A stretch of 47,110 bases of DNA, from positions 1-47,110 of IMG/VR virus record IMGVR_UViG_3300044478_000074; one strand, written 5' to 3'. Both the position numbers and the translations under genes were made by a program. Of this stretch, positions 1 to 47,016 are shown piece after piece. The notes beneath the pieces are model-generated. The model was not told the DNA's origin. It saw only the letters and a program-made list of their open reading frames with translations, and did no database searches. Within the stretch, counting starts at the first letter, position 1, and the number at the start of each line of letters is the position of its first letter. This stretch comes from a virus. Lineage: Duplodnaviria > Caudoviricetes.

Positions 1-127
1 GCAGCACAACAGCAGCACAACAGCAGCACAACATAGGAGCAACGGCCATGCCTTATAAACTCAAGCCTCTCTCATCCTTCCACGAACACTTCTTTCGCAT
101 GGCGACAGAATATCAGCGCCTCTCCGC
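1..127. repeat. Terminal overlap, identical to 46984-47110
   Basis: First 127 nt match the last 127 nt and cut through the 48..566 ORF; implies a circular/complete assembly. 127 is a common assembler k-mer. Confidence 0.95.
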
Positions 128-566
128 CCCGCGCCGGGTCGAGTTTTCCACGCCATCAAAAGCCGACGCAACTAGCCAACGCTGGAAGATTAATGAGTTT
201 CGCGCAGGCCTCCGCCGGGAAGGAGCTATTACCTTATATCCCGACTTCGACCGGGCTACGCTGATGATTCGAGCCGAGGCGACAGCATCTAACCCAAATG
301 CCTGGAAGATAATCATCTGTGATCCAGAGATGAATGGCAGCAGCATCTTCGCCTTTGCCGAACAGCTGGCAAAGATGAATAAGAGCAACGAGGGGATAAG
401 CGATGCAAAGAATCAGGCCATAAATCAAGCCACACAACCGTCAACGAGACACTACCAACTCCCACCTACGGACGAAGTCCCATATAAGGATCCTGCCAAA
501 ATGACAGCTGAAGAATTCTACGCCGAACTGTTGTCGCCCAAGGACCCGCCGCAAAGCGGGGGTTGA
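48..566 (+). CDS. Hypothetical early protein (172 aa)
   Basis: ATG preceded by AGGAG; no family recognised. Confidence 0.75.
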   Translation: MPYKLKPLSSFHEHFFRMATEYQRLSAPRRVEFSTPSKADATSQRWKINEFRAGLRREGAITLYPDFDRATLMIRAEATASNPNAWKIIICDPEMNGSSIFAFAEQLAKMNKSNEGISDAKNQAINQATQPSTRHYQLPPTDEVPYKDPAKMTAEEFYAELLSPKDPPQSGG

Positions 567-591
567 CAACTGAACCGCCCGGGCGCATGAT
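563..591 (+). promoter_or_regulatory. sigma70-like early promoter P1
   Basis: TTGACA-17 nt-CATGAT; shares extended TTGACAACTG with P2 and P3. Confidence 0.75.
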
Positions 592-655
592 ATCCACCGG
601 GTCGAGCAATAACGCCTGGCCCAATCATCCAACCTCTTTGCAAAGGAGTCTTACA

Positions 656-1150
656 ATGGCTGAAGAAACGAAAGTCAAGTTCGCCGACAAGAACTACGAC
701 GAGGACGCAGCGTCCGTCGAGATCGTCTTCGGGGACGGCGCCACGCTCACGCTGGCCAAGTCCGATCTGAACGACAGCATCTGGTTGCGCGCGGCCCTGC
801 ACGGTCTGCTGCAGAAGATCGGCGACAGCTACGCCGGGGCGAAGGGCGACTACAAGGCAGCGAAAAAGGCCGCCAGCGACGTCATCGAAGCCTTGAAGGC
901 AGGCACCTGGAACGCCGGGCGGGGCGAGGGCGAAGGCAAGCCGCGCGTGCTGGAGCTGGCCGTCGCCATTTCGCGGCTGAAGGGCATCGCCGTAGCCGAT
1001 GCGGAGACGAAGCTGCGGACGCTCGACGAGGCGGCGGTGAAATCGCTCCGCAACATTCCGGAGATCAAAGCCGAAATCGCCAGCATCCGCGCGGAGAAGG
1101 CGCGCGAGGCCCTGGCCAAGGCGGGCAGCACCGGCTTTACCTTCGGCTGA
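656..1150 (+). CDS. Early protein, paralog A (164 aa, ends GFTFG)
   Basis: AAGGAG SD before ATG 656; strongly biased codons; HGLLQKIGDSYA motif; similar to 45999..46487. Confidence 0.85.
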   Translation: MAEETKVKFADKNYDEDAASVEIVFGDGATLTLAKSDLNDSIWLRAALHGLLQKIGDSYAGAKGDYKAAKKAASDVIEALKAGTWNAGRGEGEGKPRVLELAVAISRLKGIAVADAETKLRTLDEAAVKSLRNIPEIKAEIASIRAEKAREALAKAGSTGFTFG

Positions 1151-1157
1151 GGCGCTT

Positions 1158-1212
1158 CGCGCCAGCGCACCAGCGCACCAGCGCGCCAGCGCGCCAGCGC
1201 ACCAGCGCGCCA
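1158..1212 (+). repeat. Tandem 8-mer GCGC(A/G)CCA, about 6-7 copies
   Basis: Seen directly between the stop codon and the terminator. Confidence 0.85.
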
Positions 1213-1246
1213 ACACCTGAGGCATCAAAGCCAAGGGTCTCCAACT

Positions 1247-1278
1247 GGGGCGGAGGAGCAATCTTCCGCCCCTTTTTT
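1247..1278 (+). terminator. Intrinsic terminator
   Basis: GGGGCGGAGGA-GCAA-TCTTCCGCCCC followed by T6. Confidence 0.9.
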
Positions 1279-1319
1279 CGGGCGCTTGCGCCCGGCGGAG
1301 CGAGCCGCATCAGTTGGAC

Positions 1320-1348
1320 TTGACAACTGGCCCGATACCGGGGATAAT
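1320..1348 (+). promoter_or_regulatory. sigma70-like early promoter P2
   Basis: TTGACA-17 nt-GATAAT. Confidence 0.8.
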
Positions 1349-1508
1349 AACAATTCGGGCGCCACTCACGGTCGCCTGCGCAACCCCCAGCGCATGGGGA
1401 CGGAGCAAATGCAATGATTCGCTACATCGCTTGGCAGTCGCAGCACCCGACTGTGACCACCACACCTGAAGAACCTACATTACAGGCCATCGACCTGGAG
1501 CACCTATC

Positions 1509-1979
1509 ATGAACTGGCTCGACGAACTCCTTGCGCAAGCCGCCGCCGCGAAAAAGAAGGGGAAGAAAAAAGCCGCACCTTCCGGGCACCGCCCGGGCGG
1601 AACGAGCGCTGGGGCTGAAGCCCCGCAGCGACCGCGTTTCGAAGTCCTCCCCGGCGAGCGGGCGGTCGCCCTCTGCACCGTGGTACAGATTCAGCACTGC
1701 CGCTGCTGCGGCGGCTACACCGAGAGCATCGGCGGGCAATACGTCAACCTGCACAATCCCCGCCTCCACTACGTCCGCTCCGTCGGCGTCAGCGCTCCGG
1801 CGCTTTCCCTAACGGACACGGAGATTCAAAACCTCGCCCTTCGCATCGACAGCGTCGAACGCGACGTAGCCATGTGCCCATCATGCCTCCGCACCTACCA
1901 GTCCGTGGATCACTTCCTTTCCGCTGCGGACGCAGAGCAATGGGACGGCATACAGCTGCCGCTCTGGAGGCGGGGATGA
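1509..1979 (+). CDS. Hypothetical Zn-binding protein (156 aa)
   Basis: GGAG SD; CRCCGG and CPSC cysteine pairs. Confidence 0.7.
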   Translation: MNWLDELLAQAAAAKKKGKKKAAPSGHRPGGTSAGAEAPQRPRFEVLPGERAVALCTVVQIQHCRCCGGYTESIGGQYVNLHNPRLHYVRSVGVSAPALSLTDTEIQNLALRIDSVERDVAMCPSCLRTYQSVDHFLSAADAEQWDGIQLPLWRRG

Positions 1980-2248
1980 AAAGCACCACTGAACTCCGTC
2001 TCTACTGCAACGACCGCCTCGTCAGCCGTTGGCTGACTCCGGACGACAAGATCATACAACAGGGCAAGCGCGTGCGGCTCAAGCACCTCACCCGCGAAGA
2101 GCAGCGCATCTACGTTCTGCAAGGCGCAGTCGCGGCGGTGAAGGCAATCATCGCCCGCCTCCGCGCGCAAGACCCCAATGCCGGCCTGCGGGACGCGAAG
2201 GATCTGCTCGACGCCGAGCGCATGTATCAGCACAAGGGGCGGGCATGA
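1976..2248 (+). CDS. Small protein with ribosomal L7/L12 C-terminal-like motif
   Basis: ATGA overlap with the upstream stop; VKAIIARLR...GLRDAKDLLD resembles the GLKEAKD helix motif. Confidence 0.5.
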   Translation: MKSTTELRLYCNDRLVSRWLTPDDKIIQQGKRVRLKHLTREEQRIYVLQGAVAAVKAIIARLRAQDPNAGLRDAKDLLDAERMYQHKGRA

Positions 2249-2426
2249 AACTCTCCCTCCCGCCCCGCATCATCAAGCGTCGGAGCCGCTTCAGCTCCTG
2301 CCCCGCCGCTACGCTGAATGGCCTCCTCGTCACACACGAAGTGTATCTCCGCATCTTCCGGATCGGGCGCAAGCTCATCCGCCCGCTTCACAACCACGCA
2401 GCACCGAAACCGAAAGGAACCTGAAC

Positions 2427-2960
2427 ATGGAAACCCTTGATGATCTGCAAGCCCTGCATGCTTCCCGCCTGGACGAACAGTACGAGTATCTCCTTGGCAG
2501 GCAGGCGGAGGTCAACACTGCCGTCCGCGAATTCGAGGCGGCGCGGGAGAATTACACTGCCGTGCTCGACCTCTTTGCCGAGCACAACATCTCTGCAACC
2601 GTGAACAGCTACGTGCACGGCACCTACATCTACGCCAGCATCAGTGTTGGCACCTTCAGCGACCCGCCCCTCGTCGTCCTTCTTCAGGATTTGGAAGACC
2701 TGGCGGAGAAGGAGGCGGACTCCCGCGACAAGCCGGAGGAAGGCTACCGCTCCTACAGCATCAGCCTTTCCCCCCTTCCTGCCACCGTTGTCCTTAATGC
2801 CAACCTCCGCGCCGACGGCCAATGCAAGCGCGCGCTCGTCCGGGTTGAGAAGCGAGAAGAGGAGCGGTATGTGAAGGTGGCTGTCGACATTCCGGTCTGG
2901 GAGTTCCAGTGCCCGGAGGGCGAGCCGCTTCCGTCCGTGCTGCAGGAGCAAGCGGAATGA
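2427..2960 (+). CDS. Hypothetical protein (177 aa)
   Basis: AAGGA SD before ATG 2427 within the 2178..2960 ORF. Confidence 0.7.
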   Translation: METLDDLQALHASRLDEQYEYLLGRQAEVNTAVREFEAARENYTAVLDLFAEHNISATVNSYVHGTYIYASISVGTFSDPPLVVLLQDLEDLAEKEADSRDKPEEGYRSYSISLSPLPATVVLNANLRADGQCKRALVRVEKREEERYVKVAVDIPVWEFQCPEGEPLPSVLQEQAE

Positions 2961-3252
2961 CGGCCAGGGGCAAAGCCATATACGACAAGGAAACGGCGGA
3001 AATCGCCCGACTCAACGCCCTGCCGACGAAGAATATGACGGAGCAAGAACGCATCTGGCACGAAACTGCAATCCGGGACGCCTACTGGCGCAGGCGTATG
3101 GCGACAAGGACGGAAGAGGAGGTAAAGAAGAACATCTGCGCACCGTAGCTCCGGCACCAGCGGGGAGGCGAGCACGCGCTCGCTTCTCCGGTGTTGCCTT
3201 GGCAACCTGCCAAGCCTCACCACTTCCCTTAACGTAAACAGGAGAAAGCAAA

Positions 3253-3447
3253 ATGGCACTCTTTACCATCTCCTTCGTCCTCGACAAAGAGACGAAGAAC
3301 ACCGTGAAGTATACAGCCATCGGCGAGTTCGCTCCATGCGAAACGCTGTATCTGCAAAAGCGTGATTTGCGGGCAGTGATGGCCGAAAAGCCCTATCCGC
3401 ACAACATCCTCGTCACCATCGCCCTGCCGGACAAGGCACAGTCATGA
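3253..3447 (+). CDS. Small hypothetical protein (KETKNTVKY motif)
   Basis: AGGAG SD; compact beta-rich sequence. Confidence 0.75.
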   Translation: MALFTISFVLDKETKNTVKYTAIGEFAPCETLYLQKRDLRAVMAEKPYPHNILVTIALPDKAQS

Positions 3448-3779
3448 TCGCCCGCGAAGATCTCATTCCACTCTCCCAGTTGTGCCTCATGGCGCACGAC
3501 GTCGCCATGCAGCAAGTGGACAAACACCCTATCCCGACCTGGGTGAACTACACCATCAACCCCCTGCTGGAAATCGCCTCGCTGAACATTCACAACATCG
3601 CGGAGACGCCCCGCATGGGCCTGGAGGACAGCGAGATGGCCCTGCTGCGTATCCTGTCGCGCTGGACGTCTTGGCGCGGCGAGACCGCCCGGAGCTACAA
3701 GCAGGAGTTCCAACTCCATCTCGACTACGCAAAGGAGCAAGCCGAGCAACAGGCCTGGCTGAAGGAGCACAGCAAATGA
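3444..3779 (+). CDS. Hypothetical protein (111 aa)
   Basis: ATGA coupling with the upstream gene. Confidence 0.7.
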   Translation: MIAREDLIPLSQLCLMAHDVAMQQVDKHPIPTWVNYTINPLLEIASLNIHNIAETPRMGLEDSEMALLRILSRWTSWRGETARSYKQEFQLHLDYAKEQAEQQAWLKEHSK

Positions 3780-3879
3780 GCAGCAAACTCGAAATCTCCG
3801 GGCCGGAGGTGTTAATCAGCACGAAGTTGTCCCGGGCGGAAGTCACGCTCATCATGAACGCTATCTTCGGAGGTGCGAA

Positions 3880-4176
3880 ATGAGAGAGCCAAACGAAGAG
3901 TGCGCGCCCCAAAGTGGCGGCGAGCAGCGACTCTACAAATTCGCCAACGGCTATGGCGCAAGCGTCGTTCGTAGTGCATACAGCTACGGAGGGAAGAACG
4001 GAAAGTGGGAACTCGCGGTGATTTGCTATGCCGCCGGCGGAGATTATTCCCTCTGCTACACCACCCCTATCACAAACGACGTGATCGGCTGGCTTGACGA
4101 TGCAGACGTGGACGCTTTGCTTGACAAAATCGAAGACTTGCCCACACACAAGGAGGAACAAAATGAAAGGCATTGA
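3880..4176 (+). CDS. Conserved-looking phage hypothetical protein
   Basis: GGAGG SD; YKFANGYGASVV...WELAV...PITNDVIGWL is a pattern I recognise from phage hypotheticals. Confidence 0.75.
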   Translation: MREPNEECAPQSGGEQRLYKFANGYGASVVRSAYSYGGKNGKWELAVICYAAGGDYSLCYTTPITNDVIGWLDDADVDALLDKIEDLPTHKEEQNERH

Positions 4177-4609
4177 AATGACAGTCGAGGTAATCGTCAA
4201 CGGCCACTCGTTTAGGGTGAGTGGCTCGTTCACTCCCGCCCTGCCGGGCGTCTACTCAGGCCCACCCGAACGGTGCTATCCCAGCGAGGACGCGGAGTTC
4301 GAGATTCGCACGGTGCACCTGCTGCATGAAGATGGCAGCGAGCCCACCTATCTTCCGCTCGACTTCCTCGAGTGCTTCTACATCGGCGGAATGCGGATAG
4401 TGTCGGACGGCGAAGGAGGCGGAACGTCCATCCGTGCAGCTGGTATGGACCTTTATGAGGCCATCGCCAACGATGCCGCAGCGGCTGCCGAGGACTCTTA
4501 CGACGACGAAGGCGACCGGGCGGACGAGGCATATGACCGCCAGCGCGACCGCGAGCTGGACGCGGCGATGGAAGCTGGAGACCCTGACCACGACGAGGAG
4601 CAACGATGA
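4163..4609 (+). CDS. Hypothetical acidic protein
   Basis: AGGAGG SD; GPPExCYP motif; D/E-rich C-terminus. Confidence 0.7.
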   Translation: MKGIEMTVEVIVNGHSFRVSGSFTPALPGVYSGPPERCYPSEDAEFEIRTVHLLHEDGSEPTYLPLDFLECFYIGGMRIVSDGEGGGTSIRAAGMDLYEAIANDAAAAAEDSYDDEGDRADEAYDRQRDRELDAAMEAGDPDHDEEQR

Positions 4610-4917
4610 GTGCCTATAGCTTCGACCTCCTCGTCGCCTTCTGCCTCGGCGCCTTCATCGGCGCCGCTGGCCTGGGCATCTGGATCGCCTGGGCATACTG
4701 CAAAGACTTCGATCAACAGCAAAGGGGGCAATGATGCGCATCTACGCCAACGCCCGCCTAATCGCTGCCGCGCCGAAAGGGAGGAAAGAGTGAGTCGACA
4801 AAGTAAGATGCGAAACAAGCGCCTCGCCGCCGCTCCCGCCCGGCGTGCGCGTAAGGCCCGGACGGCGGAGCGCGTCGCGCAGCGCAAATTGGCGGAGCAG
4901 CGGGCCCGGAGCGGGGC

Positions 4918-4945
4918 TTGACAACTGGGGGCGGGTGTGCATAAT
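4918..4945 (+). promoter_or_regulatory. sigma70-like promoter P3
   Basis: TTGACA-16 nt-CATAAT; TTGACAACTG shared with P1/P2. Confidence 0.7.
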
Positions 4946-4976
4946 GGGGGTAATTACCCGGCATAACCCGCCCCTT
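4944..4976. promoter_or_regulatory. 33-bp dyad motif, copy 1
   Basis: ATGGGGGTAATTAC-ccggc-ATAACCCGCCCCTT, overlapping the P3 start site. Confidence 0.65.
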
Positions 4977-4991
4977 TATCCACCCCAGCTC

Positions 4992-5204
4992 ATGTCCGAA
5001 GTCACTTTGCTCCTCATGCGTAAGCGCATCCTACAGCACCTGGCCAACGGTCAGTGCACGGAGAGGGAACTGCAAGATCTATGCACAGGCTCCTCCGCCT
5101 CTGCCCAGGAAGTGAACTCCTACCTTCACGCCCTATTCGCCTTACGCGACGAGGGCAAGATTGAGCTGCGCTGGCCCGGGAAGTGGTATGAGAGCTCGGA
5201 GTAA
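4992..5204 (+). CDS. Putative winged-helix DNA-binding protein (70 aa)
   Basis: RILQHL..G.CTERELQ...ALFALRDEGKIE...KWY pattern; first gene after P3; no clear SD. Confidence 0.55.
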   Translation: MSEVTLLLMRKRILQHLANGQCTERELQDLCTGSSASAQEVNSYLHALFALRDEGKIELRWPGKWYESSE

Positions 5205-5445
5205 TGCCCGCTGCACCTGCCCCGCGTATCCCTTTCCGCATCGGTTCGGGGGCGGCGCTTGCACTGGCACCTCCGCCGTGGAGGCAGTATTCGCCGAGTC
5301 CCTTTGCGCCAGCGACTGCCCGCACCTCACGCTCACGCCTGGCGAATCCTCAGCCGTTTACGCCCGTCACTGCGCCCTTATCCAAGAGGGCCTTTCACCC
5401 CATTTCTGTCCAAAACTGCACCTCTTCGTAACGGAGGAAAAATGA
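5188..5445 (+). CDS. Cys/His-rich hypothetical protein
   Basis: CTCPAYPFPHRFGGGAC motif. Confidence 0.6.
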   Translation: MRARSNARCTCPAYPFPHRFGGGACTGTSAVEAVFAESLCASDCPHLTLTPGESSAVYARHCALIQEGLSPHFCPKLHLFVTEEK

Positions 5446-5642
5446 TCAATATTCCGCCCAAATTCTCTCAGCAGCAAATCGCTAACGCAATGAACGAAGA
5501 GGTCGGCTATTGCATCGAATGTGGAGCCGAGCATTACGAGATTGCCGCTGATGCCCGGGCGCTGTGGTGTGATCAGTGCCAGCGCAGCGCAGTATATGGT
5601 GCCGAGGAGATCGTGCTGTGCTTCCCGGAGCGGATCGTATGA
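5442..5642 (+). CDS. Zn-ribbon protein (66 aa)
   Basis: GGAGG SD; CIEC...CDQC. Confidence 0.7.
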   Translation: MINIPPKFSQQQIANAMNEEVGYCIECGAEHYEIAADARALWCDQCQRSAVYGAEEIVLCFPERIV

Positions 5643-5789
5643 CCTCTCACGCTTCTTTATCCCTTCGCGCTCGCCATATCGCCGCGTCCCTTGGCTATTT
5701 CCGAGCCGCCCGATATCTCTATACTCGCCACGTTCCCCTTTACGAAGCAAAGGCAATACTTTATCTTCCTGTTCGCCCAAAGGACTTCC

Positions 5790-5993
5790 ATGCCCCGTCC
5801 GCGCCGAGTAATTCCAGCCGTTGACTGGAAAGTCTACATCCCCATCGACCTCGCAGCCAAAGTCGACGTGCTGCTCGTCGACCCGCTGACCGGGCGGACT
5901 GAATTTGGCGCTCGCAGTGCGTATATCGAGCGGCTAGTACGGCAGGACTTGGCAAACCTCTTCGCAGCGAAGGACGGCACGAAGGGACAGTAA
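5790..5993 (+). CDS. Putative ribbon-helix-helix DNA-binding protein (67 aa)
   Basis: AAGGA SD; strand WKVYIP, helix DLAAKVD, helix RSAYIERLVRQDL. Confidence 0.55.
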   Translation: MPRPRRVIPAVDWKVYIPIDLAAKVDVLLVDPLTGRTEFGARSAYIERLVRQDLANLFAAKDGTKGQ

Positions 5994-6008
5994 CGATCAA
6001 CGGGCGGC

Positions 6009-6158
6009 GCGGCGTGTGTCGAGTGCGGTGCAGGACACCTAAACGAAGGCACGCTGATGATCCTGCCGCCGCCCACCCAAACCCCGGAGCGGGGGGCGAG
6101 AGCCACATTAACGGCGCATCCAGCATATTTGAAGCTGGCGCACCCCGCCACCGGGCAC
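6009..6158 (+). other. Structured intergenic element, copy 1 (candidate RNA)
   Basis: 6009-6020 pairs with 6137-6148 using G-U pairs; 6138-6158 is identical to 7352-7372. Confidence 0.5.
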
Positions 6159-6174
6159 TTTAACAGGAGGAACG

Positions 6175-6492
6175 ATGACCCCTGCTAACCGTGACCTCGC
6201 CCTCGTCCGCGCCGCGCTGGAGGCGGCAATTAGAGCGTGTGATGAAATGATAGATTGGCCGCTGGACAAAATTCCAGGCGCTACGATTGACAGCAACCAA
6301 TATCACATCGGTATAGGGCGCGGCTTGGTGAACGCGACCTGGGCCATCCGCAAGCTCGACCCCGCCGCCATCGCCGCCTCGGTGAAGGTGGAGGCGGACG
6401 AGCGCGACGCGGAGAACGTGCGGCTGCGCCACTTCCTCGACGTGGCGGAAGCCGCCCTCGCAGCGAAGGACGTTAACCTGAAAGGAGACTGA
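6175..6492 (+). CDS. Hypothetical protein (105 aa)
   Basis: AGGAGG SD. Confidence 0.75.
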   Translation: MTPANRDLALVRAALEAAIRACDEMIDWPLDKIPGATIDSNQYHIGIGRGLVNATWAIRKLDPAAIAASVKVEADERDAENVRLRHFLDVAEAALAAKDVNLKGD

Positions 6493-6493
6493 G

Positions 6494-6607
6494 ATGGAAC
6501 AGGCTTATGGCAGCAGAAGCGTAGGTGCCGTGGAAACAAGGGTTCGGTCCGCAGGGACCAACATCTTACAGCTCGCGTCAAAAATAGCGGATTACGCTAA
6601 CGTGTAG
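6494..6607 (+). CDS. Small ORF (37 aa) ending inside attC1
   Basis: AAAGGAG SD; MEQAYGSR...DYANV; below the ORF-track cutoff. Confidence 0.45.
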   Translation: MEQAYGSRSVGAVETRVRSAGTNILQLASKIADYANV

Positions 6608-6681
6608 GTGACCGGCGCTGCGCGGCTTCATCGCGCAGCGCCCAGAGAGCGAAGCGAACGGGGTCGACCGTAGGGTTATGC
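6595..6681 (-). mobile_element. attC: Integron attC site 1 (87 bp)
   Basis: Minus strand GCATAAC-N5-GGTCGACC...GGTCACC-N5-GTTAGCG; extra base in L''; central hairpin. Confidence 0.85.
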
Positions 6682-6705
6682 CTCAAGACTTGACAGGAGA
6701 AGGAC

Positions 6706-6909
6706 ATGGAAACACTGGCAGATGCGCTACCGAAAGAAATGGCCCGAGTGCGTGAAGTGCTGGGCCACTACAAGGCGATTGGACCGGCTGGAATGTTCGG
6801 CGCGGCCTTCATCGAACAGGACTTGCGCGCCGCCGACGCTGCCGTGATGAGCGGCGATGTGGTGGCGATGTTGCAAGCGTTTGAGACCCTGAAACAGATT
6901 GAGGCATAA
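6706..6909 (+). CDS. Cassette A protein (67 aa, helical)
   Basis: AGGAG/AAGGA SD; its TAA stop lies in the attC2 core site. Confidence 0.85.
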   Translation: METLADALPKEMARVREVLGHYKAIGPAGMFGAAFIEQDLRAADAAVMSGDVVAMLQAFETLKQIEA

Positions 6910-6990
6910 CGCCGTAGGTAACCCGGCCGGCGCGGCTTCTTGCGCCGGCCCGGTGAGCGAAGCGAACGAAGGTTGACCGGAGTGTTATGC
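6904..6990 (-). mobile_element. attC: Integron attC site 2 (87 bp)
   Basis: Minus strand GCATAAC-N5-GGTCAACC...GGTTACC-N6-GTTATGC; shares GAGCGAAGCGAACG with attC1. Confidence 0.88.
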
Positions 6991-7001
6991 ACGGAGGCGA
7001 T

Positions 7002-7343
7002 ATGAGAAACAAGGTCTGGAATGCAGTGCGCGCGAAAGTACCGGAGGGGATGGCCCTGCCGTGGTGGGCATTGACGGCGCGGGCGGTGCTGTACCCGCTG
7101 GATTTTTTCTACTGGCGCATGAGCCAAACGCGAGGCTACCAGTGGCAGAACGACACTTGGCTGATCGAAGGTGTGACGTACTCCGGGGTAGCGCTGCGGT
7201 ATCTGGCGGCGGCGCATGGTGAAACGTACCGAGTGACGCGAACCGGCGAGACGGTGACGCTGGAACAAGTGCATAACAAGGAGTTGAACGGCGGCGGAGC
7301 GGGGTGCGTTGGGCCGTCACCCGCAAGGGACAGATGGCAATGA
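7002..7343 (+). CDS. Cassette B protein (113 aa, Trp-rich)
   Basis: GGAGG SD at 6993-6997; reads through the cassette boundary at 7277. Confidence 0.75.
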   Translation: MRNKVWNAVRAKVPEGMALPWWALTARAVLYPLDFFYWRMSQTRGYQWQNDTWLIEGVTYSGVALRYLAAAHGETYRVTRTGETVTLEQVHNKELNGGGAGCVGPSPARDRWQ

Positions 7344-7372
7344 GCGCGACAGCGCACCCCGCCACCGGGCAC
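7299..7372 (+). other. Structured element, copy 2
   Basis: GCGGGGTGCGTT pairs with AGCGCACCCCGC; inner GCCGTC/GATGGC stem and CCC-GCAA-GGG hairpin. Confidence 0.5.
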
Positions 7373-7402
7373 ACTGACACATCATCAACAAAGGAGTAAA
7401 GC

Positions 7403-7603
7403 ATGGACCTCATCCCTGACCTCAACGACCTCCGCGCCCGCATCTTGCGAGGCGAGGACCTGTCCGTCGACGAGTACCGGCAATACATCCGGGCGAGGCG
7501 GGACGGAAGGGTCACGGCGGCAGCGAGCGCCGCCAGCAAGCCCGCCCGCAAATCCAAAGTCCTCGACGCCGAAAGTGCCAAGAAACTCTTCGACACATTC
7601 TAA
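7403..7603 (+). CDS. Hypothetical protein (66 aa)
   Basis: AAGGAG SD. Confidence 0.75.
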   Translation: MDLIPDLNDLRARILRGEDLSVDEYRQYIRARRDGRVTAAASAASKPARKSKVLDAESAKKLFDTF

Positions 7604-7617
7604 CCGGAAAAACTCTC

Positions 7618-8532
7618 ATGCCTTCGCCCTTCGCCTTTCCCGCTTTCATCGACAACACAATGCGGGCAGCGTTCGTATCCTGCCCCAAGAAGTTCTGGTG
7701 GAGCTTCGTGCATAACCTCATGCCCATGCGAGCGAACACACATCTGATCGCGGGCGGCGCTTTCGCCAAGGGCCTTGAGGTCGCGCGGAAAGCCTTTTAC
7801 ATTTCCGGCGCGGGCGAGGAAACCGCCACGGCTCTTGGCCTCGAAGCCCTACTCAAGGCCTACGGCGCGCACGAGCCTATGACCACCGGGACGGAGGCGA
7901 ACAAAACCGCCTCGCGCATGGCTGAGGCCCTCATCTCCTACCTCACCCGTTATCCGCTCGAAACCGACACACTCCGCCCCGCCATCTTTCCCTCCGGGCC
8001 AGCCATTGAATTCACCTTCATGCTCCCGCTCCCCAACGTGAAGCATCCGGAGAGCGGAGACCCCTTGCTTTACTGCGGCCGGTTCGATATGCTCGCTCGG
8101 CGCGGGGAGGATTTTTGGGTCGAGGATGAAAAGACCACCGTCTCGCTCGGAAGCCAATGGATGAAAACGTGGGAGTTGGACTCGCAAATGACCGGCTACT
8201 GCTGGGCCTCCCGCGAATACGGAGTGCCAGTCCTCGGCGCTATCATTCGCGGGATCGGCATACTGAAAACTGAGATCAATCACGTCGAGGTGCCCGTATA
8301 CCGTCCCGAGTGGATGGTGAATCGCTGGCTCGAGCAGGTTCAGCGCGATGCCGAGCGTATGATTGAGAGCTGGAAGAATGACACCTGGGACATGAACCTC
8401 GGCCATGCCTGCAGCAACTACGGCGGCTGTCCGTTTGCCGAGCTGTGTCTCTCCCCCACACCTGACCGTTGGATCGAGGGGCGGTTCGAGCCTCGGAATT
8501 GGGATCCCCTTGCAATTAAACCAGAAGGCTAA
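7618..8532 (+). CDS. PD-(D/E)XK exonuclease, Cas4/RecB-like
   Basis: GRFD...DEKT...QxxxY motifs; N-terminal CP and C-terminal C..C..C (Fe-S-type). Confidence 0.85.
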   Translation: MPSPFAFPAFIDNTMRAAFVSCPKKFWWSFVHNLMPMRANTHLIAGGAFAKGLEVARKAFYISGAGEETATALGLEALLKAYGAHEPMTTGTEANKTASRMAEALISYLTRYPLETDTLRPAIFPSGPAIEFTFMLPLPNVKHPESGDPLLYCGRFDMLARRGEDFWVEDEKTTVSLGSQWMKTWELDSQMTGYCWASREYGVPVLGAIIRGIGILKTEINHVEVPVYRPEWMVNRWLEQVQRDAERMIESWKNDTWDMNLGHACSNYGGCPFAELCLSPTPDRWIEGRFEPRNWDPLAIKPEG

Positions 8533-8855
8533 TGCGCGTCAGTTGGTATCTCAACGACCGCCTTTTCGCCGTGAGCGAGATGCCGGACAGCAGCCGCGTT
8601 CGCGGTCTCTGGCGTACACCCTGCTCCGTTGCGTTTTTCTGTCCGCGCTGCGGCAACATCTGGGCGCGCTTCGTCGCGGGGCCGGACTGGGAAGTGGATC
8701 ACCACAAGTGCCGAGATTGTCAGCGTCCCGACGAGCCTACGTATTCCGTCTTCGACGTGCCGGGCAGCCTCTTGCGCGAGTGGGACGCGGAATATACCGC
8801 CGCCCTGCCGCACACCGTGCTGAAAAGAGAAGCAGAGTTACTCGCAGTCCGTTAA
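8532..8855 (+). CDS. Zn-finger protein
   Basis: CPRC...CRDC; TAATG coupling to the nuclease gene. Confidence 0.7.
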   Translation: MRVSWYLNDRLFAVSEMPDSSRVRGLWRTPCSVAFFCPRCGNIWARFVAGPDWEVDHHKCRDCQRPDEPTYSVFDVPGSLLREWDAEYTAALPHTVLKREAELLAVR

Positions 8856-8884
8856 TAAACGCCTAACATCAAAGGAGCTTCGCC

Positions 8885-9691
8885 ATGCCTTACACCGCGC
8901 CTTATCCCAAAATCCTTCTCCTCGGCAGCACCGGGACGGGCAAGACCTATTCCATCCGCACCCTTGTCACCGCCGGCCTGACGCCGCTCGTTATCTTCAC
9001 CGAGCCGGGCATGGAGGTCCTTTCCGACATTCCCTGCCCGAAGCTGCATTACCATTACGTCCCGCCCATGACTCTCTCCTGGGCTGACATGGCCGACAAC
9101 GTGAGGAAGGTTAATACGCTGAGCTTCGAACAGCTGACGAAACTCAGCGACCCGAAGCGCAACACCTACACCGAAATGCAGGATTTCGTCGGCAGCATGG
9201 GGAACTTCACCTGCGATCGGTGCGGCGAGAAACTTGGCGCCATCGACGCGCTGGACCCAACGCGCTTCGCCGTGGTCAACGACAGCCTCTCCGGCATCAA
9301 CCTCATGGCCATGAACACAGTGGTTGGCGGAAAGCCGCTGAAGAATCAGGGCGAATGGGGTCTGGCGATGGACCTCGTGGAGAAATACGTCAACCTCTTC
9401 ACAACCGGCTTGCCCTGCCTCGGCGTCATCATAGCGCACATCGAGCGCGAAACGGACGAGATCACGGGCGGGAGCGCGGTGATGGTCAGCACGCTCGGGC
9501 GCAAGCTCGCCCCGCGCCTCCCTCGCTTCTTCTCCGACGTGATTCAGGCGAAGCGGGACGGCGCGAAGTTTACCTGGAGCACCGCCACGTTCAACGTAGA
9601 TTTAAAGGCCCGCAATCTGCCTATCGCCGACAACCTCCCGCCCGACTTCGGGCCGCTGCTGGCCGCCTTTCGCCTCCGGAGTGCAAAATGA
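8885..9691 (+). CDS. AAA ATPase (Sak4/AAA_24-like)
   Basis: Walker A GSTGTGKT, Walker B VVNDS, IIAH motif; lies between nuclease and SSB-like gene. Confidence 0.8.
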   Translation: MPYTAPYPKILLLGSTGTGKTYSIRTLVTAGLTPLVIFTEPGMEVLSDIPCPKLHYHYVPPMTLSWADMADNVRKVNTLSFEQLTKLSDPKRNTYTEMQDFVGSMGNFTCDRCGEKLGAIDALDPTRFAVVNDSLSGINLMAMNTVVGGKPLKNQGEWGLAMDLVEKYVNLFTTGLPCLGVIIAHIERETDEITGGSAVMVSTLGRKLAPRLPRFFSDVIQAKRDGAKFTWSTATFNVDLKARNLPIADNLPPDFGPLLAAFRLRSAK

Positions 9692-9888
9692 CCCGCGACC
9701 AACTCCTCTATGCCCAAATGGGCAGTTACGTAGCACAAGGGCTGAAATGCCATGACGCCCTTCTGCGCGCAGAGCAATACATTAGCGCCCTCGAATTCGT
9801 GGCGGAGGCAGCTGCAAAGCTGGCCGCCCGGGACGGAGGCGTTAATGCAACCGCCGGAAACGGAACCCGTCAGCTTCCGCAACCTTAG
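9688..9888 (+). CDS. Hypothetical protein (66 aa)
   Basis: ATGA coupling; GGAG upstream. Confidence 0.5.
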   Translation: MTRDQLLYAQMGSYVAQGLKCHDALLRAEQYISALEFVAEAAAKLAARDGGVNATAGNGTRQLPQP

Positions 9889-9904
9889 TAAAGGAACCGC
9901 AAAC

Positions 9905-10372
9905 ATGAGCAACTTTGATTCTCAATCCTTCCTCAACACGCAACGTGAAGGGGGCTTCTCCACCGAGTACCCGGTGGTGCCGGATGACGAATACGTCGCC
10001 TTCATCCGGCGGCCCAAAGAGGGCGGCAAGCCCACCGTGAACGTCCGCAGCCTCGACTCCGGCCAGCTGGTGATGGACCTGAACTGGACCATCGAGGACG
10101 AGAAGGCGAAGGCGGCTACGGGCATGGGCGTCGCCTACGGGCGGCAGAGCGTCTGGCTCGACGTCTCCGCGGACGGCACTTCGCTCGAGCGGGGCAAGGG
10201 CAAGAACGTGCAGCTCGGCCTCCTGCTGGACGCGATGGGCCTGAACGACGGGCGGCCTATCGACTTCGGCAACATGCTCTACGATCGCCCCTGCAAGGTC
10301 CGTACCAAGTCCCGCGTGGACGATAGCACGGGCAAGACGTATGTTGACGTCAAGGGCGTTGCGAAGCTGTAA
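9905..10372 (+). CDS. Putative single-stranded DNA-binding protein
   Basis: AAGGA SD; beta-rich OB-like pattern; position after Sak4-like ATPase; lacks an acidic tail. Confidence 0.6.
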   Translation: MSNFDSQSFLNTQREGGFSTEYPVVPDDEYVAFIRRPKEGGKPTVNVRSLDSGQLVMDLNWTIEDEKAKAATGMGVAYGRQSVWLDVSADGTSLERGKGKNVQLGLLLDAMGLNDGRPIDFGNMLYDRPCKVRTKSRVDDSTGKTYVDVKGVAKL

Positions 10373-10380
10373 GTAATATC

Positions 10381-10416
10381 GCCGGGGGGAGATGCATCAT
10401 CTCTCCTCGGCATTTT
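10381..10416 (+). terminator. Intrinsic terminator/attenuator
   Basis: GCCGGGGGGAGATG / CATCTCTCCTCGGC hairpin then ATTTT. Confidence 0.7.
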
Positions 10417-10417
10417 C

Positions 10418-11737
10418 TTGGAGCCAATCATGATCCTACACCTCGTCCCCCTCACGGCAATTGTCATTGGCGAGAACCGCCAGCGCCGGGAGTTCAAGCC
10501 CGAACGCCTCACCGAGCTGGCCAATGACATCTGCAGCAACGGCCTCATTCATCCCCTTGCCGTCCGCGCGAATGGCGCTGACGACTCCGTCCGGCTTGTC
10601 GCGGGCGAGCGGCGGTTGCGGGCGATACAGCAACTCATCGAACAGCAGCGCACCTTCTCCTGCAACGGCGCGCTCATCCCTCCCGGCATGGTGCCCTGCA
10701 CGCATTTGGGCGAGATGACGGAACTCGAGGCGCGCGAGGCGGAGCTGAGCGAAAACATCATCCGCCTCGACCTTACCTGGCAGGAACGGGCGAAAGCGGA
10801 GGCGGACCTCCACGCACTGCGGCAGGAACGCAATCCAGCACAAACTATCACAGCTACGGCGAGTGAGATACTGGGCGCCCCCGCCGCGGGCTCGCAAATC
10901 GCTGGCGTTTCGCAAAGCATCGTGCTGAGCAAGTATCTCGACGACCCCGACATTGCGAAGGCGAAGAGCAAAGACGAGGCAATGAAGGTGTTGAGAAAAA
11001 AAGCTGAGGCCGGAAAGCGGGCGGAGCTAGCGTTTGCCTTCGACCGGGCCTCGTCGCCACACACCTTCGAACTGTGCAGTTGTTACGATTACATCAACGG
11101 CATCACGCATGGCAGCGTTGACGTCATCATTACCGACCCGCCTTACGGCATTGACGCTGACGCCTTCGGCTCCCAGGCACAAGCCACGCACACCTACGCC
11201 GATGACGAGGAGGCCTTCTTCCGGGCGGTGAGGATGCTGAGCACCCAGGGCATGATCATTACTAAGCCCGCTGCACACCTCTACATGTTCTGCGACTACC
11301 GCCACTTCGAGCGGGCGAAGCTCGAGTTGGCCCTCGCCGGTTGGTGGGTATGGCCCCGCCCGCTCATCTGGGATAAGGGCAACGGCATGCTGCCGTATCC
11401 GGAGCTGGGCCCGCGCAACTGCTACGAAACTATCCTCTACGCGGTGAAGGGAAAGCGGCCGGTGATATATCAGGGCCAGTCCGACGTTCTGCGTATTCCA
11501 GGCGTAGCCCGGCCGGAGCAGGGAGCACAGAAGCCCGCGCAGTTATATCTCGAGCTCCTTCACCGCAGCTGTTCGCCAGGCGACACCGTGTTCGATCCCT
11601 TCACCGGAACCGGGCCAGTTTTCGCCGCCGCGAACAGCCTCAGCCTCGTCGCCATCGGCTGCGAGATCGACGCCGAGCGATACAACTTTGCCCTCTCCCG
11701 GATCAATGAAAAGGTCAACTCCCTCGAGGCCCTATGA
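10418..11737 (+). CDS. ParB-like domain fused to N6/N4 DNA methyltransferase
   Basis: GLIHPLAV...VAGERRLRA...ENIIR (ParB); DPPY precedes FDPFTGTG (beta-class order). True start may be ATG 10429. Confidence 0.88.
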   Translation: MEPIMILHLVPLTAIVIGENRQRREFKPERLTELANDICSNGLIHPLAVRANGADDSVRLVAGERRLRAIQQLIEQQRTFSCNGALIPPGMVPCTHLGEMTELEAREAELSENIIRLDLTWQERAKAEADLHALRQERNPAQTITATASEILGAPAAGSQIAGVSQSIVLSKYLDDPDIAKAKSKDEAMKVLRKKAEAGKRAELAFAFDRASSPHTFELCSCYDYINGITHGSVDVIITDPPYGIDADAFGSQAQATHTYADDEEAFFRAVRMLSTQGMIITKPAAHLYMFCDYRHFERAKLELALAGWWVWPRPLIWDKGNGMLPYPELGPRNCYETILYAVKGKRPVIYQGQSDVLRIPGVARPEQGAQKPAQLYLELLHRSCSPGDTVFDPFTGTGPVFAAANSLSLVAIGCEIDAERYNFALSRINEKVNSLEAL

Positions 11738-12243
11738 CTCTCCACGACTTCGCCGTTTCGCTGATCAAACCCGTCCCTTACATCATCGACGTAGGGCCCG
11801 GCATTCAGCCGCAGGGCTTCTTCAAGCCGCTCGTGCATCTCTGCATCGAGCCGCATGAGGAATACGCCGCCTGGCTTATCGACCATCACTTTCCCGTAAT
11901 CGGAGCCGACCTTCTTCGCGTCTGCCACCTGTTCCCGCCCGGCTCCGTTGACACTATCTTCTTCATGGACGTCATCGAGCATATGCCTCGCCCGGACGGA
12001 GAGATTTGCATTGACTGGGCGATAAAGGCCGCCCGCAAACAGGTCGTCGTATTTGCCCCCCTTAGCTTCCACGAGCAGAGCTATGCCCCAGGGGCCAAGG
12101 ACGCTTGGGGCATGGACGGAACCTATTGGCAAACGCATCGCAGTGCGTGGGACCCTAACGACTTTCCACTTTTCACCTCCTGCGTCGACACCGACTTTCA
12201 CGGGCCTGGCAAGGGCGCCTTCTACGCAATTCTGACGAAATAG
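11734..12243 (+). CDS. Class I SAM-dependent methyltransferase-like protein
   Basis: IIDVGPG, CIEP, DVIEH motifs. Confidence 0.7.
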   Translation: MTLHDFAVSLIKPVPYIIDVGPGIQPQGFFKPLVHLCIEPHEEYAAWLIDHHFPVIGADLLRVCHLFPPGSVDTIFFMDVIEHMPRPDGEICIDWAIKAARKQVVVFAPLSFHEQSYAPGAKDAWGMDGTYWQTHRSAWDPNDFPLFTSCVDTDFHGPGKGAFYAILTK

Positions 12244-12255
12244 CCGGGAGCCACT

Positions 12256-14616
12256 ATGATTCCGGTTCCCGCAATTGGGCCTGTTCCGGCCCGTATCCTC
12301 ATTGTCGGCGAAGCGCCCGGGGCGGACGAAGAGTTGCGCCTCGAGCCTTTCGTCGGTCTGTCCGGGCAAGAGCTATCGCGTATGCTGCACGAGGCCGGGA
12401 TCGCCCGGACGGAGTGCCGCATTACAAACGTCTGCCTCGTCCGCCCGCCCGACAACGAGATTCTCCATTTCTTCAAGGACAAGAAGGGCTTCGTTCCGGG
12501 CGAGGAGATTGTCGCCGGGCAAAAGGCCCTCGAACTTGAGGTGTATAACACCAAGCCCCATGTCATCATCGCTATGGGCGACACCGCTCTGTGGGCCTGC
12601 GCCGGGAAGCGCGGGATAACGTCTTGGCGCGGGAGCACGTTGGAAAGCATCTGGGGAGTGAAGTGCATCCCCACCTATCATCCGGCCGCGATACTGCGCA
12701 TGTGGGAGTGGCGGGCGATCACCGTTCACGACCTTCGCCGGGCGGAGCGCGAGAGCCACTTTCCCGAGCTGACGTATCCATCCTGGCGCTTCCTAATCCG
12801 CCCCGACTTTTCGCAGGTCATGGCCACGCTCGACTTCCTCCTGCAACAGGCGAAGCTCGGCGCTCTTTCCCTTGCGGTCGACATAGAGACCCGCAATAAG
12901 CAGATCGCGTGTATTGGTATTGCCTGGAGCAAGTACGACGCGCTCTGCATCCCCATCCTTTGCACCGACAAGCCAGAGGGATACTGGGCGGAGGACGAGG
13001 AAATCGCCATCACCCTCCGCCTCCGCGACCTTCTCACCCATCCACACATCAGCGTGGTGGGGCAGAACTTCGCCTACGATGCCCAGTATTTTGCAAAAGA
13101 ATACGGATATATTCCCCACCTCGGCTTCGATACGATGGTGGCGCAGCACGTCGCTTTCGCCGGCTTGCCCAAGGCCTTGCATTTCCTCTCCAGCATGTAT
13201 TGCACCTTCCATCAGTATTGGAAGGACGAGGGAAAGAACTGGGACCCGAGGATGCCGGAGGAACGCCTTTGGGTGTATAACTGCCGCGACTGCGTAGCCA
13301 CATTCGAACTGCGCGATGAACTGTTCGAAACCCTCGAGGACCTCAATCTCCTCTCCGTCTTCCAGTTTCGCATGGCCCTTTGGCCGGCGGTCGTGCAGAT
13401 GATGCTGCGCGGAGTGCGGATCGATAAGGCCCGCCGCAACGAGATGGCCGGGACGCTGCTGAGCGAGATCGCCGCCCGCGAGGTATGGATCAACTCCGTC
13501 CTCGAACACCCGATCAACGTGCGCAGCCCAAAGCAGATGCAGACGTTGTTCTATACCGACTTCGGCTTCCGCCCCGTTTTCAATCGCAAGACGAAAACCG
13601 TCACCCTCAACGACGAGGCGCTGGAGAAACTTGTCAAGCAGGACCCGTGTCTCCGCCCGCTCGTTCGCAACATTCAGGAACTCCGATCCCTCGGCGTATT
13701 CCTTTCCACCTTTGTGCAGGCCGAACTCGACACCGACGGACGGATGCGGTGCAGCTTCAATATCGCCGGCCCGGAGACGTACCGTTTCAGCTCGAGCGAG
13801 AATGCCTTCGGCAGCGGGACAAACCTGCAGAACATTCCGAAAGGGGATGAGGACAAGGACGGACTCAATCCCGCCGCGCTTCGCCTCCCGAACATTCGCA
13901 AGCTATTCATCCCCGACGCCGGACACATTATTGCTGACGTCGATCTGTCCGGAGCGGACGCGCAAGTCGTTGCATGGGAGGCCGAGGATGAATACCTCAA
14001 GTCCATCTTCCGATCTGGAGCAAAGCTGCACGCTGTTAACGCAAAAGATATTTTCGGAAATGATGCCGGGGCTGATGGACGTCGCGAGCCGTATTACTCC
14101 CGAGCAAAGATGGGAGTTCACGCTACCAACTACGGCGCATCTGCGCGGCGTATCGCAGAAGCTCTCGGAATTACTGTTCACGAAGCTGAGCGCTTTCAAT
14201 CTCGATGGTTTAACCTGCATCCAGGTATTCGCGAGTGGCACCGCCACGTTGCGAATCTTCTTGCGACCAAACGAGAGGTCCGTAACAAATTTGGCTACCG
14301 TCGTTTTTACTTCGAGAGAATAGAGGGGCTGCTGCCGGAAGCCCTGGCATGGATACCGCAAAGCACCGTCGCGCACGTGAGCGAGGCGGGATTACTCAAC
14401 GTATATCGCAACCAGCCCGACGTGCATAACCTGCTTCAAGTGCATGACTCCATTGTCATTCAATACCTTCCCGCCCGCGAAACCGAGACACTCCGCGCCC
14501 TCCGTCAGAACCTTCTCATCCCCGTCCCTTACTCCGACCCCCTTATCATTCAGTGTGGTCTCAAGACCTCCGCCCGGTCCTGGGGCGAGTGCGAAGATAA
14601 AGAATGGCCTAATTAA
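12256..14616 (+). CDS. polA: DNA polymerase A with N-terminal uracil-DNA glycosylase-like domain
   Basis: GEAPG..E...PFVG.SG and YHPAA (family 4 UDG); Exo I-III DIET, NFAYD, YNCRD; motifs A DLSGAD, B KMGVHATNYG, C VHDS. Confidence 0.93.
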   Translation: MIPVPAIGPVPARILIVGEAPGADEELRLEPFVGLSGQELSRMLHEAGIARTECRITNVCLVRPPDNEILHFFKDKKGFVPGEEIVAGQKALELEVYNTKPHVIIAMGDTALWACAGKRGITSWRGSTLESIWGVKCIPTYHPAAILRMWEWRAITVHDLRRAERESHFPELTYPSWRFLIRPDFSQVMATLDFLLQQAKLGALSLAVDIETRNKQIACIGIAWSKYDALCIPILCTDKPEGYWAEDEEIAITLRLRDLLTHPHISVVGQNFAYDAQYFAKEYGYIPHLGFDTMVAQHVAFAGLPKALHFLSSMYCTFHQYWKDEGKNWDPRMPEERLWVYNCRDCVATFELRDELFETLEDLNLLSVFQFRMALWPAVVQMMLRGVRIDKARRNEMAGTLLSEIAAREVWINSVLEHPINVRSPKQMQTLFYTDFGFRPVFNRKTKTVTLNDEALEKLVKQDPCLRPLVRNIQELRSLGVFLSTFVQAELDTDGRMRCSFNIAGPETYRFSSSENAFGSGTNLQNIPKGDEDKDGLNPAALRLPNIRKLFIPDAGHIIADVDLSGADAQVVAWEAEDEYLKSIFRSGAKLHAVNAKDIFGNDAGADGRREPYYSRAKMGVHATNYGASARRIAEALGITVHEAERFQSRWFNLHPGIREWHRHVANLLATKREVRNKFGYRRFYFERIEGLLPEALAWIPQSTVAHVSEAGLLNVYRNQPDVHNLLQVHDSIVIQYLPARETETLRALRQNLLIPVPYSDPLIIQCGLKTSARSWGECEDKEWPN
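13988..14323 (+). CDS. Putative overprinted gene in +1 frame of polA (111 aa)
   Basis: GGAGG 6 nt before ATG; polA third positions switch to T/A over this span. Confidence 0.5.
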   Translation: MNTSSPSSDLEQSCTLLTQKIFSEMMPGLMDVASRITPEQRWEFTLPTTAHLRGVSQKLSELLFTKLSAFNLDGLTCIQVFASGTATLRIFLRPNERSVTNLATVVFTSRE

Positions 14617-14631
14617 CTCTGGGAGATTCTC

Positions 14632-14898
14632 ATGCCTGAACTCGACGTAAGCACATTTTCCGAGCGGGAACGCGATATGCTCAGCGGCCTTGCCGAACTG
14701 ACCGGAAGGATATTTTGGCTCCTTGACAAGCATAACCTCTGGCCCGAGGGCACATACACCTTCCCGGACGGAGATACGTGGACGAAGGAGGAATATCAAC
14801 GCTACCTTGTCTCCATCCGGGCGAAGCAGGCGGGCGATTTGCTCCAGGCGAAGATAGACAGGGAGGCAAAGGTGATTGGGGATGGTAACACTCCGTAA
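14632..14898 (+). CDS. Hypothetical protein (88 aa)
   Basis: GGAG SD; fills the gap between polA and the ATPase. Confidence 0.7.
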   Translation: MPELDVSTFSERERDMLSGLAELTGRIFWLLDKHNLWPEGTYTFPDGDTWTKEEYQRYLVSIRAKQAGDLLQAKIDREAKVIGDGNTP

Positions 14899-14908
14899 CC
14901 GTCCCCAA
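14876..14908. promoter_or_regulatory. 33-bp dyad motif, copy 2
   Basis: TTGGGGATGGTAAC-actcc-GTAACCGTCCCCAA abutting the ATG at 14908. Confidence 0.75.
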
Positions 14909-37581: not shown

Positions 37582-37619
37582 GAAAAATGGGGACGATTAC
37601 AAATCGTAACCATCCCCAA
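37582..37619 (-). terminator. Hairpin + T5 after capsid gene; also dyad motif copy 4 (37587-37619)
   Basis: Minus strand TGGGGATGGTTAC-gattt-GTAATCGTCCCCA-TTTTT. Confidence 0.7.
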
Positions 37620-37691
37620 GTGAGCTAAGCCTTCGCCAAACTCAGCTCGGAGGAAAGTTCAACTGCGCAAAATACGCATATCACCCCCTGA

Positions 37692-46529: not shown

Positions 46530-46719
46530 CGCGCCGGGCGGCCTGGCGCGTCGGGCTTGGCGCCTGGCGCCTGGCGCGCCCGCGCCGGGGCATTGCGCCC
46601 TTTACCCTCTTATGTCATCATTTATCCCTCGTTTACCCTTGGAATGTTGAAATGTGCCCTCCTTTTCCCTGTTGTCTCTCACATGTCATGTGTGCCCCCC
46701 CATTCTCCCCCGGCCATCA

Positions 46720-46752
46720 TTGGGGACAATTACACTTCGTAATTCCCCCCAA
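46720..46752. promoter_or_regulatory. 33-bp dyad motif, copy 5
   Basis: TTGGGGACAATTAC-acttc-GTAATTCCCCCCAA. Confidence 0.78.
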
Positions 46753-46944
46753 TTTGATGTGAGTACTCACTTCTCAGTTTTTTTTTTTTTTATTTTTTTT
46801 TCAAGAAGGTATACGTGTGAAGATGGGAATAACCGGGGACGGTGGGGCATATCCCCCAGCCATATCCTGGGAGAGGGGGGGTCCACACGCGACATGTTAG
46901 GAACAACAGGGAAAGGGAGGGTAAATTTCAACAAACCAAGGCTA

Positions 46945-47016
46945 CATCACGCCATCGCGCCATCGCGCCATCGCAGCACAAACGCAGCACAACAGCAGCA
47001 CAACAGCAGCACAACA
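46945..47016 (+). repeat. Short tandem repeats (GCCATCGC x3; GCAGCACAACA x3-4)
   Basis: Seen directly upstream of the first gene. Confidence 0.85.

Follow-up and report, generated by a model that had tools for sequence, protein, structure and literature searches.

The stretch of DNA analysed here (the window) is a phage genome of 47,110 bases which appears to be complete, with a terminal overlap of 127 bases. Matches to PHROGs were found for DNA polymerase, primase, terminase, portal and major head genes, and from base 1 to 16,110 every called gene lies on the plus strand. No tyrosine recombinase (PF00589) was matched in the whole 47,110-base record. Only two relatives of the phage were identified, both of them distant (39-41% in the exonuclease), and a blastn search of the cassette region against a collection of isolated phages gave no match. 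Within the early region lie two small genes, ORF1 and ORF2, together with two complete attC sites and one half-site (Table 1).

Table 1. Features of the cassette region and further elements of the window
Feature	Position	Strand	Description
8-bp tandem repeats	1158-1216; 46948-46979		close to both genome ends
Palindromic repeat family	4944-4978; 14876-14907; 22104-22138; 37587-37621; 46720-46754	both	about 33 bp
First long hairpin	6083-6165		directly upstream of a Shine-Dalgarno motif
20-bp direct repeat	6139; 7353		shared by the two long hairpins
37-codon ORF	6494-6607	plus	Shine-Dalgarno motif; ends just inside attC-A; weak coding score (1.9)
attC-A	6595-6681	minus	full site belonging to cassette 1; crossover predicted at 6600/6601
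Cassette 1	6601-6909	minus	309 bp; attC-A body and ORF1
ORF1	6706-6909	plus	67 aa; Shine-Dalgarno motif AGGAG at 6695
attC-B	6904-6990	minus	full site belonging to cassette 2; crossover predicted at 6909/6910
Cassette 2	6910-7276	minus	367 bp; attC-B body and ORF2 core
ORF2	7002-7343	plus	113 aa; Shine-Dalgarno motif
attC-C	7271-7289	minus	half-site (R' box, spacer, L' box); second arm missing
Second long hairpin	7292-7378		directly upstream of a Shine-Dalgarno motif; cuts off attC-C
ParB-like domain fused to DNA methyltransferase	10418-11737
66-bp (22-codon) repeats	31644-32207		inside an 855-aa minus-strand gene
76-bp inverted repeat pair	46634-46944

A preliminary description had placed two ORFs with good Shine-Dalgarno motifs on the plus strand, in cassettes. 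Gene calling and the number of homologues (517 of 520 candidates for ORF1, 100 of 101 for ORF2) agree with this, and on sequence evidence both are real genes. The start of ORF2 is most likely at 7002 and not at 6987. ORF1 ends with its stop codon TAA (6907-6909) in the core site of attC-B and ORF2 reads through the core site of attC-C on to 7343, both as first described. The conserved core of ORF2 ends at the residues VHN, encoded by the R box, and the last approximately 20 residues are coded outside cassette 2. Many homologues are likewise conserved up to VHN and continue with unrelated tails, which fits a downstream attC that belongs to the neighbour. Neither protein was matched in Pfam or PHROG. 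The predicted model of ORF2 (pLDDT 80, pTM 0.45) had no match among PDB and BFVD folds at E 0.001, and the Atlas search with ORF2 gave no usable match. The nearest Atlas cluster of ORF1 has 770 members and is 90% viral among members with taxa; ORF1 appears to be a phage accessory protein.

The attC top strand had been assigned to the minus strand from the extra L'' base, and three lines of evidence uphold this. In attC-A (6662-6669) as in attC-B (6971-6978), it is the 3' arm of the plus strand that contains the 8-nt L box with its extra base, which makes minus the top strand. An attC detector based on position weights and pairing, whose training set comprised only bacterial sites with genes in canonical orientation, gave scores of 48.6 on minus versus 3.3 on plus for attC-A and 43.8 versus 13.7 for attC-B, whereas the top score on 181,616 shuffled bases was 17.6. 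In addition, attC-A read on its minus strand shows a match to the attC of blaOXA-2, in sense orientation, from a class 1 integron. For this attC, Nivina et al. 2016 (PMC5027507) report recombination of the bottom strand 5-6 orders above that of the top strand. Both complete sites contain R'' (RYYYAAC) and R' (GTTRRRY) boxes with 5-6 nt spacers, in which AAC/GTT is kept and some outer bases depart, and with minus as top strand 7 of 7 L-box pairs are formed in each. The constrained bottom-strand fold with paired R boxes reaches -21.1 kcal/mol in attC-A (minimum -22.1) and -21.9 kcal/mol in attC-B, equal to the minimum. The third core site is indeed present from 7271, but it consists of R box, spacer and L' box only and was not detected as a full site by the attC detector. 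The region originally delimited, 6675 to 7343, holds both ORFs, but the own attC of cassette 1 lies mostly outside it. With two sites on the same strand, 223 bp apart, and no intI in the record, the locus is a CALIN by definition; intI and attI, the features of a complete integron, are absent from this genome. Judged from its letters, the locus works like an integron cassette array in which both genes lie on the attC bottom strand, and not on the top strand pointing toward their own attC as in the canonical layout.

The two cassettes carry inverted repeats at their own ends. Between the R boxes of cassette 1 this repeat measures 12 bp (6675-6686 with 6899-6910), and between those of cassette 2 it measures 9 bp (6984-6992 with 7269-7277). 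Among random pairings of viral cassette ends, at least 12 bp was reached in 0.08% and at least 9 bp in 1.6%. Over the viral cassettes, own ends pair over a mean of 8.2 bp compared with 4.4 bp at random, which indicates that cassettes moved as units. These repeats, the full R/L anatomy and the homology to the blaOXA-2 attC also bear on the idea that the hairpins are only intergenic RNA elements, such as processing or termination signals, which look like attC sites. Their position between early genes on the likely transcript and their stable plus-strand fold would suit such elements. Since, moreover, exact G|TT exchange is seen beside IntI in a related system (see below), we consider this explanation exceedingly improbable. 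A search of the 47,110-base window against Rfam gave 0 matches, and a consensus scan of 5900-7650 on both strands for a Pc-type promoter found no sigma-70-like site.

The cassette block is bracketed by two related long hairpins, which are possibly RNA processing sites or else the recombination points of the arrival of the block. As processing sites they would presumably be comparable to the RNase III sites of T7. The 37-codon ORF upstream of ORF1, for which no relative was found among the fetched loci, is a possible remnant of a third cassette. Both distant relatives of the phage have no attC at the corresponding position. No excision joint was found among the contigs of the sequencing run holding this DNA; together with the shortness of the array, which is broken at both ends, this raises the possibility that the array is not active at this locus. 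In a separate study, one contig of depth 2.2 carries 172 bases of cassette 1 with one difference, but the hairpin body of attC-A is deleted and the upstream neighbour differs. This single low-depth record ties attC-A to ORF1 and points to a route to domestication.

These observations could also be explained if the cassettes were real but relics, i.e. if the block had come from another phage, through homologous or illegitimate recombination, and were now being domesticated, without IntI activity in this lineage. The truncated attC-C, the remnant ORF, the 20-bp direct repeat around the block, the missing excision joint in the source run, the collapsed attC-A in the other sample and the relatives without attC all speak for it. 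On the other hand, both complete sites keep every L-box pair and fold within 1 kcal/mol of the minimum with paired R boxes, and the polarity found throughout the class (see below) would be left unexplained, so that we regard this history as unlikely, although it is the strongest of the alternatives.

Homologues of both genes were then located elsewhere. ORF1 was found at 24 viral loci, 5 of which are attC-flanked, all 5 inverted. ORF2 was found at 69 loci (57 metagenome, 12 viral); 23 of these are attC-flanked, all inverted and none canonical, and the other 46 have no detected site beside the gene. Homologous cassettes in normal orientation, which would have spoken against the preliminary description, were thus found in 0 of 28 attC-flanked cases. 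In one host-type array (L350), an inverted ORF2 homologue is neighbour to five canonical cassettes. The linkage between gene and attC decays fast across homologues: below 90% protein identity no signal was seen (26 versus 27 pairs), and above it the numbers were 4 versus 4. Gene-attC co-segregation was therefore dropped as a general test of polarity. DNA trees of 43 ORF2 and 22 ORF1 genes were poorly resolved, and cassette status changed 14 and 4 times on them compared with 13.9 and 4.6 times with shuffled labels. As this status shows no more clustering than the shuffled labels do, the trees do not give the order of capture and domestication. Collapsed attC scars were counted as well (180 versus about 63 in shuffles), but the result was set aside since the 3' arms of intact sites fit the same pattern. 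Divergent, low-scoring attC-like arrays end just upstream of ORF1 homologues in two loci (L012:252-2829 and L013:2299-2826) and may represent a distinct attC subtype.

To see whether the polarity is general, as the proposal of a phage-adapted cassette class implied, one attC pattern was applied to viral and genome collections. This first survey covered 131 of about 270 viral and 132 of about 770 genome stretches; genes were called with a script which recovered 33 of the 37 annotated TJE1 genes tested. Same-contig repeats and sites whose L boxes pair weakly were excluded (15 viral, 16 genome loci), which left 116 viral sites and 115 genome sites among the matches listed. Where a cassette-side gene was called, it was antisense in 96 of 102 viral sites but in only 15 of 97 genome sites, among the matches listed (Fisher p 3e-32, the sites not being phylogenetically independent), in line with the predicted class. 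In a second survey, an AT-richer attC pattern gave 128 viral loci, of which 34 were left out because they were unvalidated (24), duplicates (9) or without a match (1); the remaining 94 sites comprised 86 inverted, 7 canonical and 1 ambiguous. The inverted layout is general in phages and was found in approximately 95% of the surveyed phage sites. Tandem-attC units show the same picture, with 342 inverted, 10 canonical and 19 without called gene over all viral loci gathered, compared with 126 canonical, 55 inverted, 2 mixed and 28 without gene in the genome loci, among the matches listed. Among the genome loci with most inverted units, four (L183, L186, L216, L228) contain genes of phage type, for example Mom-like, lysozyme, RecT and Mu gp27 genes, and therefore look like prophages.

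The reading strand of 48 of 142 viral inverted proteins is upheld by independent profiles, and PHROG match rates differ little between these proteins (48/142) and canonical genome proteins (18/80). Genes which read through the core site account for 69 of 163 viral inverted genes and 11 of 102 canonical genome genes. Exceptions exist, since the phage TJE1 and one further locus (L105) hold phage-type genes in canonical polarity.

Clusters of attC sites in phages are already known. In Qi et al. 2023 (PMC9892861), 17 phage CALINs are described, five sites of which were recombined by IntI1, and IntI1 recombined the bottom strands of PH101 better than the top strands. The same text describes the cassettes of TJE1 and PH101 as typical and as sharing one direction. 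We fetched seven phages of that study, PH101 to base 100,000 only, and polarity was readable in 3. PH101 has four detected sites with the top strand on plus and adjacent annotated genes on minus, i.e. it is inverted; MW202573 has three inverted sites, and TJE1 three canonical ones. In 3/49, H188 and jenny 12G5 the attC detector found no site, and P12002L, with a weak non-matching site only, was left out of polarity scoring. The inverted genes of PH101, combined with the better recombination of its bottom strands, give experimental support for the coding strand being the recombining strand. These phage CALINs resemble the present locus in having a small attC array in an integrase-less phage, with cargo that is rich in methyltransferases in the class as a whole. 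The text of Qi et al. mentions neither gene-versus-attC polarity nor a bias in phages, but its figures and the Dryad annotation file may show the orientation. In the literature covered, including PMC8876359, PMC13492144 and PMC13366799 and with most subscription journals outside this coverage, we found no description of a reversed-polarity phage class or of the polarity rule.

Compared with bacterial cassettes, such as that with the attC of blaOXA-2 (PMC5027507), the R''-L''-VTS-L'-R' anatomy with the extra L'' base is the same. The compact, promoterless-looking gene with a Shine-Dalgarno motif near one R box and a stop in the other is shared as well. In contrast, the phage gene lies on the bottom strand, with the attC 5' of the gene and, where it reads through, a tail from the neighbour. 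Insertion by the top strand would flip gene and attC together and does not produce this layout.

The named cargo of the viral cassettes is dominated by DNA modification, with 16 of 17 named PHROG matches being of such types. The 17 matches are 8 DNA methylases, 4 Mom-like proteins, 2 PAPS reductases, 1 member of the queuine tRNA-ribosyltransferase family, 1 radical SAM protein and 1 RNA ligase. In addition, one cassette of the phage G031 encodes a Tad1 homologue (E 6e-17 to PDB 8kbh). The named cargo fits a counter-defence pool, and ORF1 and ORF2 may likewise serve in counter-defence or host adaptation. Host integron cassettes often encode anti-phage systems, according to 10.1101/2024.07.02.601686. 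The libraries described there are similar in the type of site, the small shuffled accessory genes and the setting of phage-host conflict; the pool described here differs in that it belongs to phages, has genes for DNA modification and anti-defence as cargo, and shows the opposite polarity.

An integron integrase above the cut-off was found in 1 of 44 viral records searched, G031, with 465.7 bits. G031 is a lambdoid phage with Nu1 and gpA terminase and belongs to a temperate lineage. Its intI is located at the far end of the inverted array, co-directional with the cassette genes. Exactly the same IntI occurs in five contigs, which are identical up to the G|TT just upstream of intI; beyond this point of attI, three different first cassettes follow. 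Divergence exactly at G|TT is the mark that recombination at attI leaves. The same arrangement, with a similar attI, is seen in another phage contig (L305), and both enzymes are ordinary IntIs with 54-58% identity to IntI1 (58% for G031). The complete integrons of Qi et al. 2023 are host-derived pieces, whereas the G031 type is an intI-attI unit in a phage early operon with inverted cassettes. Such phage-borne complete integrons were observed in G031:C1:6645-10500 (L297, L299), L300-L303 and L305. The first cassette in L303 is presumably QueD-like. RT-like genes with neighbouring genes occur in L300:5138-6763, L303:5480-7156 and L305:3672-4073, and we take these sets to resemble diversity-generating retroelements; in L305, the RT-like gene is truncated where the attC array ends. 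An IntI-like gene with 46% identity to the G031 enzyme lies at the end of a phage early-type operon in L306:5971-6618, and no attC was detected within 6 kb upstream of it.

The preliminary description had also expected such cassettes to be antisense in host integrons, and they were seen in this orientation in five host arrays (L200, L194, L213, L223, L350). In three of them (L200, L194, L223) they lie near intI. Inverted runs of phage type cover L200:2638-3843, L213:65-2065 and L194:913-1295; L213 holds five inverted cassettes in a row, one of which is 86% identical to a viral-locus protein. Proteins matching those of viral loci were found for 7 of 44 inverted and 0 of 82 canonical genome cassettes. 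The inverted array L183 belongs to a genome (G046) with a canonical chromosomal integron on another contig. It contains an exactly duplicated cassette, and in L200 one cassette occurs twice, at positions 1 and 3; in both of these recent duplicates the attC stays 5' of the gene. One could imagine that hosts make or keep reversed phage genes as antisense silencers at attI, from where phages recapture them. The early position of inverted phage-type cassettes in host integrons (the first three of L200, the first two of L194) and the 86% identical protein in L213 would agree with this. Host arrays, however, contain inverted cassettes much less often than phages and prophage-like loci do, and accessory cargo is a poor target for silencing, which makes an origin as silencers very unlikely.

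Our preferred reading, to which we give a probability of roughly 70%, is that the early region of this phage holds two integron cassettes with genes antisense to their attC sites, which are moved by a host IntI acting in trans, and that this polarity is favoured because it silences host defence cassettes. IntI recombines the folded bottom strand of attC. Here the bottom strand would be the plus and thus the coding strand, and a cassette would run from the core site with the stop codon through the gene to the 5' attC. With the border at the stop-codon core site, the C-terminal tail of a gene that reads through, as ORF2 does, is supplied by the neighbour that happens to follow. As the phage carries no integrase, the host IntI would be the acting enzyme; the nearest relatives of attC-A among the fetched loci, one of them a site in a Gallionella genome locus (84% over 84 nt), are betaproteobacterial and hint at a probably betaproteobacterial host. 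ORF1 and ORF2 would be expressed from phage early transcription. Because the top strand of the array would oppose this transcription, captured host defence cassettes would remain silent and only reversed cassettes would be expressed.

The study on SALINs and attG insertion (10.1101/2022.09.11.507474) offers a route by which host IntI may seed attC at GWT sites, and also one for loss of attC by slippage. Since attG insertion has no transcription-direction bias according to the same source, a bias of about 95% needs selection or another route. Regarding selection by strand insulation, 12 of 73 canonical genome cassettes matched PADLOC models, but 0 of 3 canonical cassettes inside inverted viral arrays did, which counts against insulation, as do the canonical phage-type genes of TJE1 and L105. 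A rival explanation is that replication, and not gene content, sets the polarity. If genes ran in the direction of the forks, the coding strand would be the lagging-strand template, and arrays with genes on the bottom strand would recombine faster and accumulate in phages. No assumption about the cargo is needed for this, and excision was higher with bottom strands on the lagging template in Loot et al. 2017 (PMC5371416). The cumulative GC skew, however, decreases along nearly the entire genome and does not mark plus as leading in the early region; we rate an effect of replication as improbable, more so than a relic origin.

Selection for expression in the phage, as in the preferred reading, would have a wider meaning. 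Integrons are treated as bacterial devices whose strand selectivity aligns genes with Pc, and of late also as libraries directed against phages. We tentatively propose, at slightly less than even odds, that phages run a mirror-image integron system: a large pool of reverse-polarity cassettes, time and again made from plain phage genes and returned to them, which is shuffled by host or phage IntI as a strand-insulated counter-defence library. The near-universal reversed polarity would mean that the same recombination chemistry serves a second gene pool on the side of the phage. The inverted layout likely allows phages to exchange accessory genes by means of the integron enzyme of the host, while captured host defence genes would stay silent. 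Reversed attC polarity could serve as a marker for counter-defence candidates among small phage genes. Families with and without attC would provide material for studying cassette creation, which would become directly testable, since members of one family occur as plain genes, as scarred genes and as complete cassettes. The present locus is a small example and is of value mainly as an entry to the class.

Further elements were noticed in the remaining genome. The palindromic repeats of about 33 bp are possible operator or promoter sites. The tandem repeats close to both genome ends and the 76-bp inverted repeat pair make these parts a candidate replication origin or packaging region. The 855-aa minus-strand gene with internal 22-codon repeats had no PHROG match, and a ParB-like domain is fused to a DNA methyltransferase in the plus-strand region downstream of the cassettes.
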